Assembly: GCA_043816185.1 (NCBI GenBank)
Contig: JBDRIG010000081.1
Span: 1-13,436, forward strand
Direction of reading: 5' to 3'
DNA: 13,436 nucleotides
From: Elusimicrobiota bacterium
GTDB taxonomy: Bacteria; Elusimicrobiota; UBA8919
Part shown: positions 6,048-13,145 of the stretch, piece after piece
Position numbering within the stretch: the stretch's first letter is position 1
Layout of the letters: the number at the start of each line of letters is the position of its first letter
Notes under the pieces: model-generated
The model's database searches: none
Told to the model about the DNA's origin: nothing
The model's input: the letters and a program-made list of their open reading frames with translations, nothing else
Program-made: the position numbers and the translations under genes

Positions 6048-6152
6048 TCTTTCTTGCTGGGGACGAGACTTTTCTTGATAGAGACGAAACTTTTCCTGCT
6101 GGGGATGAGACTTTTCTTGATAGAGACGAAACTTTTCCTGCTGGGAGCGGGA
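6048..6152. repeat. Tandem repeat, five 21-bp units with 42-bp higher-order period, overlapping the tRNA-Leu 3' end
   Basis: Units at 6048, 6069, 6090, 6111, 6132; 6069-6089 and 6111-6131 are identical (cttttcttgatagagacgaaa). Confidence 0.9.
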
Positions 6153-6796: not shown

Positions 6797-8029
6797 CTAT
6801 GCTCCGTATTTTAGTAATTTACCTGCATTTGAAAGTGCTAATGATATAACATCACGCGCATTTATCCGACCCAAACCACCAGCAATACAATCAATTTCCG
6901 TGAACCTTTCAACCTTATCAAATCTACATTTTTTTGAATAAATCAGAACTGGAACAGGATGCCACGAGTGTCCAGAATGTACCGCAGGCGTTGAATGATC
7001 ACCTGTGATTATTATAACATCAGAATTCAGATTTGTCAACAATGGAATTAAGGTGTCAACCTGCTCGATTACCTTTACTTTTCTCTGAAAATCTCCATCT
7101 TCACCAGAAGAATCTGTCTGTTTTATATGAAAATAAAAAAAATCATAATTGGAAAAATTCGTTTTCAATGTTTCAAATTCCGACTCAATCGTGCCACCAG
7201 CATTTAGGACTTCCATTCCACAAAGCCGAGCAAGCCCTCTATACATCGGATAGATTGCTATGCATGCAGGCGTAAGTTTGTAGACATCTTGAAATTTTGG
7301 AAGATTTACCATTTTTGAAAACCCTCGTAATAAAATCATATTTGCTTTATGTTCATTTTTACTGTCTATCACTTCGCTTTGGCAGGTGGAAAGAATCTGT
7401 TCAGCTTTTTTTATAAATTTATTAGCAATTTTTGCAGAATTTTCGGCCGACTTATCTGTTGTCACCACTTCAAGTGGTTTTAGACCTTCTTTTTGCGGGT
7501 CACTGTCTAAAAGTTTATCGGAAAGGTTTTGTCCTCTGAAAATCACTGAAAACCTGTGCTCTTTTACTGGCATTACAAAAATTTTTACACCGTCAATTTC
7601 CATACCGTCAAGTTTTTTACACAATGCAATATTTTTTTCTGTTGGAATTCGCCCTGCCCTTCTATCGGTAATTACTCCACTATCATCGACTGTACAAAAA
7701 TTTCCTCGCGCCGCTAAATCACCAGATATGAACTCAAAATCAATTCCAAGCGTGTCCAAAAGTCCACGACCAATTTCGTATTTTAATGGATCATACCCGA
7801 AAAGCGAGAGGTGTGCTGGGCCGCTTCCAGGGGTAATGCCTGCTGAAATCGGATCGGATAATCCACAAATGGATTTTTTTGCAAGTGCATCCATATTCGG
7901 ATGGTTCGCCATTTCAAGTTCCGTTTTACCAGATTCATTCTGACAACCACCAAGCCCATCCATTACGATTAAAACTATTTTGCTGTCCGTTTTCGTCGCC
8001 AACTTTTTTATAAATTCTTGTTCAATCAT
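6797..8029 (-). CDS. apgM: 2,3-bisphosphoglycerate-independent phosphoglycerate mutase, ApgM type
   Basis: LIVMDGLGG, TELEMA..PNMD, TPGSGPAHLSLFGYDP, AARGNF, DRRAGRI, TGDHSTP, HSWHPVP motifs. Confidence 0.95.
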   Translation of the reverse strand: MIEQEFIKKLATKTDSKIVLIVMDGLGGCQNESGKTELEMANHPNMDALAKKSICGLSDPISAGITPGSGPAHLSLFGYDPLKYEIGRGLLDTLGIDFEFISGDLAARGNFCTVDDSGVITDRRAGRIPTEKNIALCKKLDGMEIDGVKIFVMPVKEHRFSVIFRGQNLSDKLLDSDPQKEGLKPLEVVTTDKSAENSAKIANKFIKKAEQILSTCQSEVIDSKNEHKANMILLRGFSKMVNLPKFQDVYKLTPACIAIYPMYRGLARLCGMEVLNAGGTIESEFETLKTNFSNYDFFYFHIKQTDSSGEDGDFQRKVKVIEQVDTLIPLLTNLNSDVIIITGDHSTPAVHSGHSWHPVPVLIYSKKCRFDKVERFTEIDCIAGGLGRINARDVISLALSNAGKLLKYGA

Positions 8030-8038
8030 AATATTTCC

Positions 8039-8995
8039 TTACCTTCTCCTCATTTGATTAAAATGTTGTACCCGTTGCTGTGCTCTTTGCACAATATTTT
8101 TACTAAACGGGTAATCCTTGATTATTCTTATGTATGATTCTCTCGCTCTTCTGATGTCACCCTCAGATTCACTCGCTCTTCCTATAATAAACAATGCGTG
8201 TGCTGCTATAAGCGGTTTATTTTGATTATTGTGAAAAACATTTTTTGCTTCATTTATAGCATCCTTGTATCGTCTCTCTTTCAACGAACGATAACTTTGT
8301 TTTAGTTGTGGTGGAATAGAAACAGCAGAATCTCCCTCTATTTCCGAACCTGCTCTTGCCCTCGCTCTTGGCCCAATTTCAATTATTTCCGACTCTGATG
8401 GTTGTGGCGATGACATTCCATGCTCTATTTCTTCCACTGGTAATTGTTGTGGTTTTTCTTCCGGCGTTCCAGATATTGATGGTTGTTCTGTTTCAGTATA
8501 AGGTTCATCTTTCCAAGTTTTTTTTATTTTTTTAGATACTGCCACTAATATATCGCCTGTCTCTATTTTTATAACTCTGGTATTGATATCAACTTTTTTT
8601 GTTTTTTTCGAATTTCTACGTTCGCTTTCTTCTATCAGAACTCCTGTTACTATTGCATCGACACCTAAAATCTTGCCCAACTCTTTTGTTGTCTCTTGGT
8701 CAATAATACCTGATTTTCCAAGTTTCATTTCATCCATAATTTTATTTAGCAATGTTCTTTCTACAACCTGCAGTTTTCCTCGTTCTACAATTTTTGTTGT
8801 TAGATATTCGGCGACTATTGTTGAACCGGGTGATCTTCTACCGTCGTAATATTGAAACGGTAGAATGGCAATTTTTTTATTTGTTAATTGTTTTGCACTT
8901 TTTGATATTTTTTTAGCAAGGTAATTGTAAGTGTCAGCAAAACTGAAAGATGCACCGAAAAACAACAACCCAATTATTAAAACAATTTTTCTCAT
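8039..8995 (-). CDS. Secreted protein: signal peptide, FlgO/CsgG-like domain, Pro/Glu linker, C-terminal TPR-like helices
   Basis: MRKIVLIIGLLFFGASFSFA signal; KIAILPF, QVVERTLLNKIMDEMKL, ELGKILGVDAIVTG, INTRVIKIETG; C-terminal AHALF.IG..SE..GD...A...Y..II.DYP. Confidence 0.75.
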   Translation of the reverse strand: MRKIVLIIGLLFFGASFSFADTYNYLAKKISKSAKQLTNKKIAILPFQYYDGRRSPGSTIVAEYLTTKIVERGKLQVVERTLLNKIMDEMKLGKSGIIDQETTKELGKILGVDAIVTGVLIEESERRNSKKTKKVDINTRVIKIETGDILVAVSKKIKKTWKDEPYTETEQPSISGTPEEKPQQLPVEEIEHGMSSPQPSESEIIEIGPRARARAGSEIEGDSAVSIPPQLKQSYRSLKERRYKDAINEAKNVFHNNQNKPLIAAHALFIIGRASESEGDIRRARESYIRIIKDYPFSKNIVQRAQQRVQHFNQMRRR

Positions 8996-9496: not shown

Positions 9497-9556
9497 ATCA
9501 ACACCCCCTATTATTTTATTTTTTTCTGTCTTTTGAATGCTTCTATAACAGCATTT

Positions 9557-9742
9557 TTAATTTTTTGTTGTATCTTCATTTTGAGCGGAGAATAATTCTT
9601 CCCCATATTTATGGATTATTTTTTCAATTTCTTTACTGCTTTTTGAGGTTAAAAACCCCGCTCCGACCTCCTTTCTAATCGCATAAACAATTTGAGCAAC
9701 CATTTCATTTAATGTAAGTTGTACCCATTCTCTAATTGCCAT
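9557..9742 (-). CDS. Small hypothetical protein, possibly frameshifted (intact end may be 9511)
   Basis: ATG at 9742 preceded by AGAGGG; helical-looking sequence; alternative frame continues KIKNAVIEAFKRQKKIK* after an A6 run. Confidence 0.45.
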   Translation of the reverse strand: MAIREWVQLTLNEMVAQIVYAIRKEVGAGFLTSKSSKEIEKIIHKYGEELFSAQNEDTTKN

Positions 9743-9759
9743 GAAAATACCCTCTAATT

Positions 9760-10248
9760 TCAAAACTTTAATTTCAACTGTTTTTGATATACATTTATTC
9801 TTTTTTCTGAAAGTTTTACATATTCTTTGTTTGTTTCAAAGCCAATATATTTTCTATCGGATTTTAATGCCGAGATTGCTGTTGTACCACTTCCTATAAA
9901 TGGATCCAAAATAATATCTTCCTTAAAAGTGTATAATTGAATAAGACGATACGGTAATTCTTCCGGAAACGGCGCAGGATGACCAATCCTTTTTGCCGAC
10001 TCGGTATTCATCGTCCAAACCGATTTCGTCCATTCCATAAACTGTTCTTTCGTAATAGTATTTTTATGATTTTCGGTATTTCTTTTATATTCGCCTTTTG
10101 AAAAAATTAAAATATATTCGTGTACATCACGCAACACGGGATTGGATGCTGACTGCCAACTTCCCTAAGCCATTGAAGTCCCTGCACTTGAGCCCTTATT
10201 CCAGATTATTTCTCCTCTCATATTAAAACCGATTTTTAACATTATTTT
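9760..10248 (-). pseudogene. Beta-class N4C/N6A DNA methyltransferase, 5'-truncated with in-frame nonsense codon
   Basis: Frame reads MLKIGFNMRGEIIWNKGSSAGTSMA*GSWQSASNPVLRDVHEYILIFSK...HPAPFPEELP...LDPFIGSGTT; TAG at 10165-10167; catalytic (S/D)PPY region absent. Confidence 0.9.
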
Positions 10249-10295
10249 TATTCGAATTGCAAAGCCAACTTCTTCAAAAATTCCTGCTCTGTCGT
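10237..10295 (-). pseudogene. Remnant of a second, diverged apgM 5' end
   Basis: ACG ACA GAG CAG GAA TTT TTG AAG AAG TTG GCT = (T)TEQEFLKKLA versus apgM MIEQEFIKKLA; GGAG SD upstream. Confidence 0.7.
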
Positions 10296-10297
10296 TC

Positions 10298-10654
10298 TTA
10301 TTTCTCCGCATTTATGTCTTTCAAGATACTTTTTATTTTAGGTTTTACTTCAACAATATCTTTTTTTATAACTTTCCAAAGTATTTCAGTATCCGCACCC
10401 GAATAATCGTGAATTAATTTATCACGCATCCCTGCCATACCTTTCCAATTCACATTGCTATATTTTTGTCTAATTGATGCGGGAATGTTCTTTGTGTCTT
10501 CTCCAATAATTTCAAGTTTTCTTACAACAGCACTGACTGTTTTATCATCTTTCAAAAAATCTTCATAACATATCCCCAAAACAAATTCTTCAATTTTATT
10601 TATGCTATCCCAAATATCATTAATAAAAATTTTATAATTTCTTTTCACTTTCAT
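10298..10654 (-). CDS. HEPN-domain (DUF86) ribonuclease toxin, HepT-like
   Basis: DDKTVSAVVRKLEIIGE, W..MAGMRDKLIHDY (R-x4-H-x-Y); start overlaps upstream stop (ATGA). Confidence 0.9.
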   Translation of the reverse strand: MKVKRNYKIFINDIWDSINKIEEFVLGICYEDFLKDDKTVSAVVRKLEIIGEDTKNIPASIRQKYSNVNWKGMAGMRDKLIHDYSGADTEILWKVIKKDIVEVKPKIKSILKDINAEK

Positions 10655-10944
10655 ATAAATACGGTTTCCTCTAATATATTATCCCGTAATTCAACTCTTA
10701 ATGCTTTTTTTCTAACAAGATCTACTTTAGTCTTTAAAACTTTTTGCAGATAATCTTCCAAATCCATAAATTTGAAAATTCCTGGTATTTTACTAAATTC
10801 AACAAGTATATCTATATCACTTCTTTTCCTCGCTTCATTGTGAACGAACGAACCAAAAATACCGATTTCCTTGACACCGAATTTACTTTTCAAAATCGGC
10901 TTATTTTTTTTAAGAATTTGTTTTGCCTCATTTAAGGTTTTCAT
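10651..10944 (-). CDS. Minimal nucleotidyltransferase antitoxin, MntA-like
   Basis: IGIFGSFVHNEARKRSDIDILVEF (GS-x10-DxD), KVDLV; 97 aa; coupled to HEPN gene. Confidence 0.92.
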   Translation of the reverse strand: MKTLNEAKQILKKNKPILKSKFGVKEIGIFGSFVHNEARKRSDIDILVEFSKIPGIFKFMDLEDYLQKVLKTKVDLVRKKALRVELRDNILEETVFI

Positions 10945-11076: not shown

Positions 11077-11955
11077 TTATTCTTTAGTAGTTTTTCCAAA
11101 AGCCATTTTTAATAAATTTACAATTAAATCCCTGTTTTCCGATAAATCTTGCTTTGAAATTCTTATTCTATATCTATTCCATTTATTATCATATTCCATT
11201 AAGTCTAATTCCGCATCTTCTATTAATTTATCTATTTCGTTTGTTTGTTCTAATCTTATTTCCATTGTTGTGTTTGTTTTTTTAGGTCTAAATATTACAA
11301 AATTATCTGGTTGTCCGTCCTTTGCAAGTCCTATATAAAACTTATTATATTTAAGTTCATATCCGATAGTAAATTCATTTATCAACCCGACTAATTCATC
11401 TGCTAAAGCAACTGTTTTTGAAGTTCTTCTTTTTTCCCAATAATTTCTATCAGTTACTTCTTTAATTTCATCTTCTTCAACCATGCCTAAACTAATCTCA
11501 TTCAAAACAGTGGTGAAAGTTAGCCAGTGATCATTAGCATTTTTGTAAGCTTCCATTTTCATAGCAATCAATGGGATTGAACCATTAAAAATGTTTATTA
11601 CATTTAAGAATCTATTTGTTATGTCTTCGGCAATTATAACAGCACAATGATCATATTGCGGGTATCTTTTTTTCTCTATATCCCAATATTCAATTGTTCT
11701 AATAATGTGACTTTCATCTACTTTTCCAAGCTGGATTTCAACTTCGTATCTTCTTTCCGAATCAGAATCTTGTAATAATAAATCTAATCTGCCAGCTTTA
11801 TGGTGAATTCTTTCCGTGTCCTTTAATATTAAATCGCCCAAACCTAAAATAGACGGGTCATTTGCAATAATTGTTTGCACCCATTTCTCATTTAAGACAG
11901 GGTGGTTTAATAGATTAACTTTTTCTGGTCTAATTAGATTTATTTTGTCATTCAT
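11077..11955 (-). CDS. Putative PD-(D/E)xK-fold (NucS-like) endonuclease with C-terminal DUF5655-like domain
   Basis: NEKWVQ..I..DPSILGLG, GRLDLL, YEVEIQLG..DESHIIRTIEYW, AVIIAE; C-terminal YELKYNKFYIGL...NFVIFRPKK. Confidence 0.7.
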   Translation of the reverse strand: MNDKINLIRPEKVNLLNHPVLNEKWVQTIIANDPSILGLGDLILKDTERIHHKAGRLDLLLQDSDSERRYEVEIQLGKVDESHIIRTIEYWDIEKKRYPQYDHCAVIIAEDITNRFLNVINIFNGSIPLIAMKMEAYKNANDHWLTFTTVLNEISLGMVEEDEIKEVTDRNYWEKRRTSKTVALADELVGLINEFTIGYELKYNKFYIGLAKDGQPDNFVIFRPKKTNTTMEIRLEQTNEIDKLIEDAELDLMEYDNKWNRYRIRISKQDLSENRDLIVNLLKMAFGKTTKE

Positions 11956-11957
11956 AT

Positions 11958-13145
11958 TTATTTCTCTTTCAATGCGGCTATGCCGGGGAGTTCGATGCCT
12001 TCAAGAAATTCCAGCGAGGCTCCGCCACCGGTAGAGATATGAGAAACCTTATCTGCAACACCAGCTTTTTTTACCGCCGATACACTGTCGCCGCCACCGA
12101 TAATTGAAATTGCACCATTTGATGTTGCCTCTGCGATTGCTTTAACAATTGCGTTTGTTCCTACGGCAAACCTGTCAATTTCAAAAACACCCATCGGGCC
12201 GTTTAGGATAATCGTCTTCGCCGATTTGATAACACTGCTATATTTCGTTATGGTCGCCGAACCAATGTCCACACCGAGCCAACCGTCTTTTATTTCAGTG
12301 CTTTTTGTTTCTTCAACGGTTGCATCTGGATTCACTTTGTCGGCTATAATATGGTCGGTGGGCAACAAAAATTGTATTTTTGAAGTTTTTTTAAGAAGCT
12401 CTTTAGCGAGATCAAGTTTGTCGTTTTCAACGAGCGAGTTTCCGACGGAAGTTCCAATTGCTTTCAAAAAAGTATACGCCATCGCACCACCAATTAAAAT
12501 TGAATCTACTTTTGTTGAAAGGTTTTTAATCACTCCGATTTTGTCTGAGACCTTAGCACCGCCCAGAATTGCAATAAAAGGTCTCGCAGGATTTTGAAGT
12601 GCATCGCCAAGATATTTTATTTCTTTTTCAAGCAGAAAACCTGCTGTCGACGGTAAAAACTTATTTACTCCGGCAGTTGATGCGTGGGCACGGTGAACAG
12701 TGCCGAATGCATCTTGAACAAAAAATTCCGCCAGTTCCGAAAGTTGCTTAGCAAACTGCTCGTCATTTTTTTCCTCTTCTTGATGAAATCGCAGGTTTTC
12801 AAGAAGCAAAATTTCCTTCGGCTGCAAGTCGGTGGCAAGTTTTTTTATTTCATCACCAATACAATCCGTCGCGAATTTAACATCTTGCTTCAAAAGTTCT
12901 GATAACCGCTTTGCAACCGGTTTCAACGAAAACTCTGGCGACACTTTTCCTTTCGGTCTGCCCAAATGGGAGCACAAAATAATTTTGCAGTTCTGTTCAA
13001 GCAGATATTTTATCGTCGGGAGTGATTCTTTTATCCGCGTGTCATCGGTTATGCTCTGCGATTTATCAAGGGGCACATTGTAGTCAACCCGCACCAGAAC
13101 CTTTTTACATTTCAAATCAACATCACGAATAGTAAGTTTAAGCAT
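11958..13145 (-). CDS. pgk: Phosphoglycerate kinase
   Basis: [60 protein letters not shown]; true start is ATG 13145 with AGGAGGAGGT SD. Confidence 0.98.

Follow-up and report, generated by a model that had tools for sequence, protein, structure and literature searches.

How does the start of a housekeeping gene come to stand among toxin and defence genes? The window (the whole 13,436-nt stretch analysed here) is contig C81 of the Elusimicrobiota genome G000 (1.44 Mb, 94% complete). On its minus strand, just behind a toxin gene, a short segment resembles the first codons of apgM, and the working apgM lies 2.3 kb further downstream. A preliminary description of this DNA took the segment for a diverged apgM allele and proposed microhomology recombination at an integrase-free anchor. 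The first entry of stand-alone toxin–antitoxin (TA) islets between two core genes is called poorly characterised in the accessible part of a recent report (PMC13617665). Double recombination in the flanks explains how TA islets spread, not how new junctions form. Recurring gene-end copies of this kind, here termed scars, hint at how TA modules enter chromosomes without an integrase of their own. Relatives from the same family or order are labeled G001–G011, and L and C numbers denote individual loci and contigs.

Organization of the pgk–apgM Interval

The minus-strand order is pgk, a 292-aa orphan, MNT, HEPN, the scar, a methyltransferase fragment, a small ORF, a PF20603 gene, a CsgG/TPR gene, apgM, and secG. 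The features, all on the minus strand, are as follows.

11958–13142, minus: pgk, the upstream core gene of the hotspot (PF00162, E 1e-164); upstream flank in 9/11 family/order genomes with that side seen
11077–11955, minus: cargo, a 292-aa ORF that matches no known family (nothing in Pfam, NCBIfam, or PADLOC); not found in the relatives' intervals
10651–10944, minus: MNT (minimal nucleotidyltransferase), an antitoxin-type gene (PF01909, PF18765; PADLOC PDC-S09)
10298–10654, minus: HepT-like HEPN toxin gene (PF01934); its 3′ end and the scar are in register with G001
10304–10307, minus: GGAG, a Shine–Dalgarno-like motif 8 nt ahead of the decayed start; 10314–10264 matches the apgM leader and start of G010 at 78%
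10264–10295, minus: scar, corresponding to apgM nt 1–32 with the start codon decayed to ACG
10250–10263, minus: 14 nt between scar and methyltransferase, matching neither parent
9760–10249, minus: 3′ half of a type II DNA methyltransferase gene, 5′-truncated (PF01555, MTase_II); 88–92% aa identity to the intact 297–303-aa genes of G005 and G008
9557–9745, minus: small ORF common to the interval of G010, at the position expected of a restriction enzyme gene; 73% aa identity to G010, DNA match from 9745
9510–9582, minus: second remnant, the final ~20 codons of a type II restriction enzyme gene (in G005, the gene after this methyltransferase); 83–85% DNA identity to the 3′ end in G005, G008, and L061
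9020–9496, minus: 158-aa PF20603 gene, cargo; its counterpart in G001 is 5′-truncated at the scar of G001
8039–8995, minus: CsgG/TPR gene, cargo directly before apgM; same placement in G001 and G003
6797–8029, minus: intact apgM, the downstream core gene of the hotspot (TIGR00306 and PRK04135 above cut-off)

The inserted block measures 2.2 kb (below 20 kb), carries no mobility genes, and is a mosaic of the methyltransferase 3′ half, the ORF shared with G010, and then the last 20 codons of the restriction enzyme gene. The G005 restriction enzyme gene matches REase_II (E 7e-49), and the remnant at 9510–9582 joins the small ORF at a 6-nt shared word. The methyltransferase fragment carries an in-frame TAG (10167–10165, minus). 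No integrase was found in the pgk–apgM interval or elsewhere in the window; in G008, an integrase-like fragment lies beyond secG. Two further observations concern the surroundings. Pieces of the 292-aa ORF (11077–11955) are covered at high depth by contigs of other organisms in sequencing run X1, and the 3′ end of a tRNA-Leu (6056–6139, minus) is followed by two further copies of its last ~16 nt with a 36-nt period.

The apgM-Like Segment

The minus strand from 10295, 2 nt past the HEPN stop (10300–10298), reads as first described, from ACG ACA to TTG GC. The last codons of HEPN contain the GGAG (10307–10304, 8 nt upstream) that served the displaced apgM start. The reported EQEF(L/I)KKLA match (8/9 residues) and the four silent differences from the window's apgM (GAG/GAA, CAG/CAA, AAG/AAA, GCT/GCG) are likewise present, and the nucleotide match to that gene is 24/33.

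Compared with its own genome alone, the scar gives only a weak match (blastn E 0.22; tblastn E 0.81). The apgM genes of Elusimicrobiota relatives are 78–86% identical to that of G000, and a weight matrix was built from nt 1–33 of ten family/order apgM genes with G000 left out. Over 2,889,056 scanned positions, the true apgM scored 40.8 bits, the scar 35.7 bits, and the next best position 17.6 bits. The scar is 96% identical to the apgM start of G008 (26 nt) and 93% to that of G001 (28 nt); over 33 positions, it agrees with G001 at 28 and with G008 and G004 at 27. The apgM start occurs only twice in G000. The segment 10295–10264 (minus) is a real 32-nt copy of the apgM start, as first proposed. 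Chance likeness or a chimeric assembly, to which the weak within-genome match and a scar-to-methyltransferase join seen only in G000 would be congenial, is barely credible given the gap between 35.7 and 17.6 bits, the HEPN-to-scar join standing in register in the separately assembled G001, and decay mutations in both the start codon and the methyltransferase. Sequencing run X1, the only one found, contains a fraction of 0.05 of the words, and its contigs do not cross the join, which speaks neither for nor against a chimera.

The extension of the apgM likeness to “QFE-KIML” was mistaken. Likeness ends at nt 32 (10264), 10263–10250 match neither parent, and homology to the intact G005 and G008 methyltransferases begins sharply at 10249/10248. 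A continuation of apgM through codons 12–20 was rejected since ~5/15 bases agree, which is inconsistent with 3–4 changes in the first 32 nt. The idea that the scar simply belongs to the natural 5′ part of the methyltransferase gene, in one frame or the other, was discarded since nothing in G005 or G008 matches upstream of 10249. Read in the alternative frame (MRRNKNDRAGIFEEVGFAIRI), which continues open into that of the methyltransferase, the segment matches the intact homologs at neither the nucleotide nor the protein level. A 48-codon frame (10312–10165, minus) begins at an ATG in the tail of HEPN, runs through the scar into the methyltransferase frame, and ends at its TAG; upstream of the join, this frame has no homolog. 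For the 14-nt filler, G000 offers one 1-mismatch match (shuffles give 0–4), and the other loci compared offer only 1-mismatch matches, all in one distant locus.

Scars in Related Genomes

The pgk–apgM interval was compared across G001–G011 and five more distant genomes. Eleven family/order genomes are counted, including G008, which lacks the pgk side, and G004, whose interval is on two contigs; G009 is not counted because its apgM contig begins inside the gene. The flanks pgk and apgM are conserved at 76–87% aa identity across family and order, and the cargo is different in each of the 11 genomes, drawn from one pool of MNT–HEPN, HicBA, restriction–modification (R-M) pairs, RhuM, PF20603, and CsgG/TPR genes. 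The interval is a cargo hotspot in this Elusimicrobiota family.

Scars of the apgM start recur in four of the 11 genomes, with different cargo and different lengths: G000 (32 nt), G001 (40 nt), G007 (30 nt), and, twice, G004 (27 and 28 nt). The relatives with similar apgM-start scars and other cargo that the preliminary description had hoped for therefore exist; the apgM beginning MTEQ that it had also envisaged was absent from the starts examined (MI/MVEQEF). In six close metagenome loci, L061 shows a new scarred arrangement (26 nt), L065 repeats that of G007, and L066 repeats that of G004, with no scar in L062, L063, or L067 within the <400 nt of upstream sequence present. These six scars continue into five or six different cargo starts. 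L066 carries pgk–scar–MNT–HEPN–scar–HicBA–apgM on one contig, that is, two stacked scars. In mirror image, G005 has a pgk 3′ scar of ~80–90 nt after a HicBA pair. Neither apgM-start nor pgk-end scars were found in G002, G003, G006, G008, G010, or G011, and with a 15-nt matrix for shorter apgM scars, matches were inseparable from background. In distant lineages, one of 126 loci carries an apgM-start scar at ≥20 bits (control 0/126); therefore, apgM as such is not a general target. The distant locus L125 (7624–7660) has an apgM-start copy 377 nt upstream with no intervening gene, and L175 has a weaker one at the same distance.

The scars of G000 and G001 stand in the same register behind the same HEPN end and are therefore not independent. 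Their joins differ: in G001, the scar enters the middle of the PF20603 gene via 8–9 shared bases. The G007 scar enters an MNT leader via 9 shared bases. At least 8 shared bases at a random join have P about 2e-4. Of the three apgM scars whose parents could be compared, those of two relatives thus show the microhomology foreseen by the preliminary description, but the window's own scar-to-methyltransferase join has no continuous microhomology and 14 intervening bases that match neither parent; it may be a later deletion join rather than the original one. Both parents of the window's arrangement have living counterparts, since HEPN stands directly before an intact apgM in G007, of another genus, and CsgG/TPR stands before apgM without a scar in G003. 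Two further features were noted in G001: the RhuM and CsgG/TPR genes form one 632-aa frame (L045:8631–10529), and the HEPN gene (L045:7904–8260) is a mosaic, mostly G005-like and G000-like at its 3′ end.

The Same Design at Other Genes

The ends of G000 genes were scanned for repeats, the raw genome self-BLAST being noisy and therefore filtered. The 3′ ends of a YifB/ComM-type gene (77 bp) and of wzz (36 bp) are each repeated around an MNT–HEPN pair, that of trpG (59 bp) around an ORF6N gene, and that of purN (49 bp) around a small nucleotidyltransferase pair. A GmrSD/HNH gene has its 5′ start (56 bp) repeated before RhuM, and an 86-bp intergenic repeat surrounds a ParE-type pair. Two of the four PF18765 genes of G000 are flanked by repeats, a third is followed by the present scar, and at the fourth MNT pair, before eno on C107, no flanking repeat was found.

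For a family-wide sample, 30 of 73 PF18765 matches were taken, and one was dropped for its short flank, leaving 29 MNT loci. Direct repeats of 28–99 bp (≥35 bits) flank 11 of the 29. At the same threshold, controls give 0/29 for inverted repeats, 0/143 for cross-genome pairs, and 4/150 for random small genes, two of these four being scarred cassettes already found in the G000 scan. Two flanking direct repeats in the random-gene control, at G000 C61:24767–25166 and C110:14352–14931, score 147 and 52 bits. Eight of the 11 MNT repeats are gene ends (3′ of PorA-like, ArfB-like, wzz, and, twice, YifB; 5′ of ddl, apgM, and a ThaI-type enzyme), and the remaining three are repeats of a terminator or leader; neither the two YifB cases nor the leader repeats count as independent. 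One more case (G009 wzz, 77 bp, a different cassette) comes from seven additional HepT loci of the family. Other Elusimicrobiota families show direct repeats at 3/19 loci and inverted repeats at 1/19. The pattern, on which the preliminary description had focused at the apgM 5′ end, is thus special neither to apgM nor to 5′ ends. Throughout, cargo precedes 3′ scars and follows 5′ scars, as gene intactness requires under any model. Similarity defines the scar boundaries, and scars with less than about 70% identity escape detection.

Three single-locus observations belong here. At L221:2190–2270 (G000 C30), the leader of the cassette itself, as far as the ribosome site, forms part of the downstream YifB/ComM-type copy; this looks like the trace of a second cassette copy since lost. 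In G005 (L048:8400–9420), MNT–HEPN is preceded by a second copy of the ThaI-type enzyme gene's start, fused to a 66-aa frame. G002 C2 (L235, L240) holds two YifB/ComM-type genes ~6.6 kb apart.

The recurrence of one cassette at one place raises the question of a circular intermediate. A cassette together with a gene end could be excised as a circle between the repeats and enter the genome of a relative by one crossover, or a trans-acting recombinase could recognise these gene ends. The same MNT–HEPN cassette (89–91% DNA identity) does stand behind the YifB/ComM-type gene in G000, G008, and G010 with its scar starting at the same base, four of the six apgM scars end at codons 9–10, and G000 encodes a serine recombinase and a fragment of one elsewhere. 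This route is nonetheless quite improbable, given that lengths and cargo vary at one site (26–40 nt at apgM; 36 and 77 nt with different cassettes at wzz), the duplicated ends of about ten genes have no common motif evident by eye, a recombinase would not cut cargo in mid-gene, Cas1 occurs in only two of 11 genomes, and no reverse transcriptase was found in G000. Circles would moreover account for spread and not for first formation.

A large merodiploid (pgk–cargo–apgM…pgk–cargo–apgM, with two alleles), trimmed by microhomology deletions to short ends, would yield both two alleles and microhomology joins. It is highly improbable: the 11 intervals contain neither a join of an apgM start to a pgk tail nor a long remnant, and single cassettes inside operons (purN–purB, trpG–trpD) bear scars of the same kind.

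Allelic Differences between Scars and Working Genes

Fourteen scar/gene pairs differ by 52 silent and 31 amino-acid-changing substitutions (pS 0.52, pN 0.07), comparable figures for the apgM orthologs of G000 and G001 being pS 0.61 and pN 0.04. Three non-independent pairs were dropped, and in the 11 pairs taken as independent, 42 of 67 differences are silent. Under a null in which an identical copy decays neutrally beside a selected gene, 23–29 would be silent, and none of 2000 simulations reaches the observed value; without the pgk pair, 28 of 47 are silent (P 0.0005–0.006). Since the differences are mostly silent, the copies were mostly already different alleles when they came together.

The window's scar taken alone has a silent excess of P about 0.10, which is not significant. 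For seven of its nine differences from its own apgM, one or more orthologs show the scar's state, and three of the seven states are each found in a single ortholog of the 10; its two Thr codons occur in none of the 10 and are private decay. The diverged allele of the preliminary description is therefore favored by the closeness to a sister allele and by the shared differences, but the silent excess is significant only in the pool. Later recombination inside a shared cassette could also uncouple the copies and so produce a silent excess, and the mosaic HEPN gene of G001 is a case in which such recombination could be seen.

A further rival is true long target duplication. A break at the apgM start, made for example by an incoming restriction enzyme, would have led to 30–40 nt of the host's own sequence being copied on both sides; the block would have held an intact R-M pair that was later eroded by deletions, and the working copy would have changed by drift or allele swaps. 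This explanation is unlikely, though the most probable of the rivals. The block has remnants of both a methyltransferase and a type II restriction enzyme gene, the class has been described for R-M genes in the text available of PMC2853133, and G000 and G001 share the scar position and not the join, as expected of a single event followed by deletions. Elsewhere, several repeats consist of near-identical host alleles (the comM-type end of G000, 47/48; also G009 wzz and G012 L279), and these fit true duplication or later amplification better than the explanation favored below. Set against it are the pooled silent excess (42/67 versus 23–29), the lack of a DNA nuclease in most scarred cassettes (MNT–HEPN, HicBA, ORF6N, RhuM), and the wzz scar of G000, which ends NPL like the allele of G009, unlike the NTL of its own gene.

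A Proposed Route of Insertion

The explanation favored here, and held to be somewhat probable, is homologous recombination anchored in a core gene together with a microhomology join near the gene end, by which the resident end is left behind. The scar would be the resident apgM start, left when a DNA fragment of a related species entered. On that fragment, the donor's apgM would have been linked to a different set of hotspot cargo (methyltransferase, small ORF, PF20603 gene, CsgG/TPR gene). General recombination of the RecA/DprA type would pair donor and host inside apgM, and the non-homologous end of the donor would be joined to the host strand ~30–40 nt inside apgM, rather than outside it, via microhomology or a few filler bases. 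The product would consist of the old MNT–HEPN cargo, the old leader and first 10–13 codons, new cargo cut at its far end, and a working apgM. Such a join would be of the homology-facilitated illegitimate type, duplicating rather than deleting, and addictive modules in the old or new cargo would favor additive events over clean two-sided replacement. We infer the roles of transformation and RecA, the assignment of donor and host copies, and selection by addiction from this arrangement of sequences.

Counting against this route, experimental homology-facilitated illegitimate recombination (HFIR) mostly deletes host DNA, and ComEC was not found in G000 (94% complete). In its favor, ComEC is present in all 10 family relatives, and G000 itself encodes DprA and the YifB/ComM-type gene. 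The recombinases of G000 (two tyrosine recombinases, both XerD-like, and one serine recombinase plus a fragment) all lie on other contigs. Cas1 and reverse transcriptase were considered as agents and rejected on the distribution given above. No fixed att core is apparent, as scar ends vary over nt 26–40 at apgM and the target genes are many and unrelated. The integrase-free anchor of the preliminary description is borne out in that the interval holds no integrase, but the scar is what one event left behind and no site dedicated to exchange. Overall, the earlier interpretation is partly supported.

Relation to Known Systems

Insertion with long target duplication has been described for R-M genes by Furuta et al. 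2010 (PMC2853133), citing Nobusato et al. 2000. In the accessible portion of that report, the repeats are mostly 90–100% alike, and DNA cutting by the R-M system is proposed as the cause. The arrangements share small cargo without mobility genes between direct repeats of ~25–100 bp and more, which vary in length, are unique in the genome, and in some cases overlap gene ends; the hosts there are mostly naturally competent, and the window's block holds an R-M remnant. They differ, as far as that portion of PMC2853133 extends, in that most cargo here is TA or other nuclease-free genes, many copies differ silently like alleles of different species (the window locus is 73% alike), cargo is cut in mid-gene, and scars are stacked at both hotspot ends. 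Set against the criteria of Furuta et al. 2010, near-identity is lacking at the window (24/33) and present at some other loci (e.g., 47/48); for the requirement of both R and M genes, the window has only remnants, and most other scarred cassettes have neither; for repeats >30 bp, the window's 32-nt direct repeat is borderline, and four scars of relatives measure 26–30 nt; for an empty site, there is the HEPN–apgM arrangement of G007, but in another genus. The arrangement resembles long target duplication in its workings and departs from it in the missing near-identity and in mostly lacking R-M cargo. These scars also suggest that a restriction enzyme may be dispensable for “long target duplication.”

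The displacement arrays of T6SS effector–immunity genes in Vibrio cholerae and of Rhs orphan modules are explained by HFIR in the available text of Kirchberger et al. 2017 (PMC5361080); HFIR is summarised in the part of PMC6382021 that could be consulted. The likeness to PMC5361080, within that text, lies in pairing a conserved anchor at one end with an illegitimate join at the opposite end, in displacing old material without losing it, and in stacking of rounds. In those arrays, the toxin locus itself supplies the anchor, and effector ends and immunity genes are what is displaced; here, unrelated housekeeping genes serve as anchors, with either the 5′ or the 3′ end involved, and no more than 26–99 bp is displaced.

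Hotspots lacking an integrase exchange their cargo through double homologous recombination in the core genes at their flanks (Oliveira et al. 2017, PMC5635113), and TA islets likewise by double recombination (Belot et al. 2026, PMC13617665), both according to the accessible sections. Variable cargo between conserved pgk and apgM, the lack of a mobility gene, and competence genes in the family agree with the account in PMC5635113. Unlike the events here, double recombination as those sections describe it swaps cargo cleanly and without scars, spreading an arrangement and creating no new junction (PMC5635113, PMC13617665).

Integrative elements such as SXT/R391 at prfC and those with dusA-associated integrases enter the 5′ end of a gene and supply a new start. 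As in SXT/R391, the old 5′ end remains upstream, and the working gene is completed from the element side; unlike in such elements, which have an integrase and a fixed crossover, there is no integrase here, and lengths vary. A full-text literature search covering few subscription papers gave no description of allele-diverged gene-end duplications around TA modules, and the supplements of PMC2853133 (Figure S7) may hold such cases.

Implications

A broader proposal is offered tentatively and with less than even confidence. Host recombination alone may install gene-sized TA and defence cassettes at housekeeping-gene ends across species, in this family and probably far beyond, by one-sided invasion of a core gene and a join 25–100 bases inside its end, with addiction selecting additive outcomes. 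Arrays resembling integrons would then build up at core-gene ends, stacking without any integrase, and the end of the previous allele would mark each round. If true, this would explain about a third of the MNT modules sampled. The scars preserve both parents' alleles and the join and so form a countable record of each event. A single scar is modest; the added value lies in the family-wide frequency (11/29 loci), the allele signal, and the stacked two-sided hotspot.

The scar starts themselves are in two states. Before intact cargo (L051:3000–3040, L066:1449–1491, and G000 C82), 5′ scars keep their ATG, and the short frames end 5–13 nt before the cargo start; before broken cargo (G000, G001, and L061), the ATG is lost or an early stop is present. 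Retention of the ATG before intact cargo could reflect translational coupling or just age.
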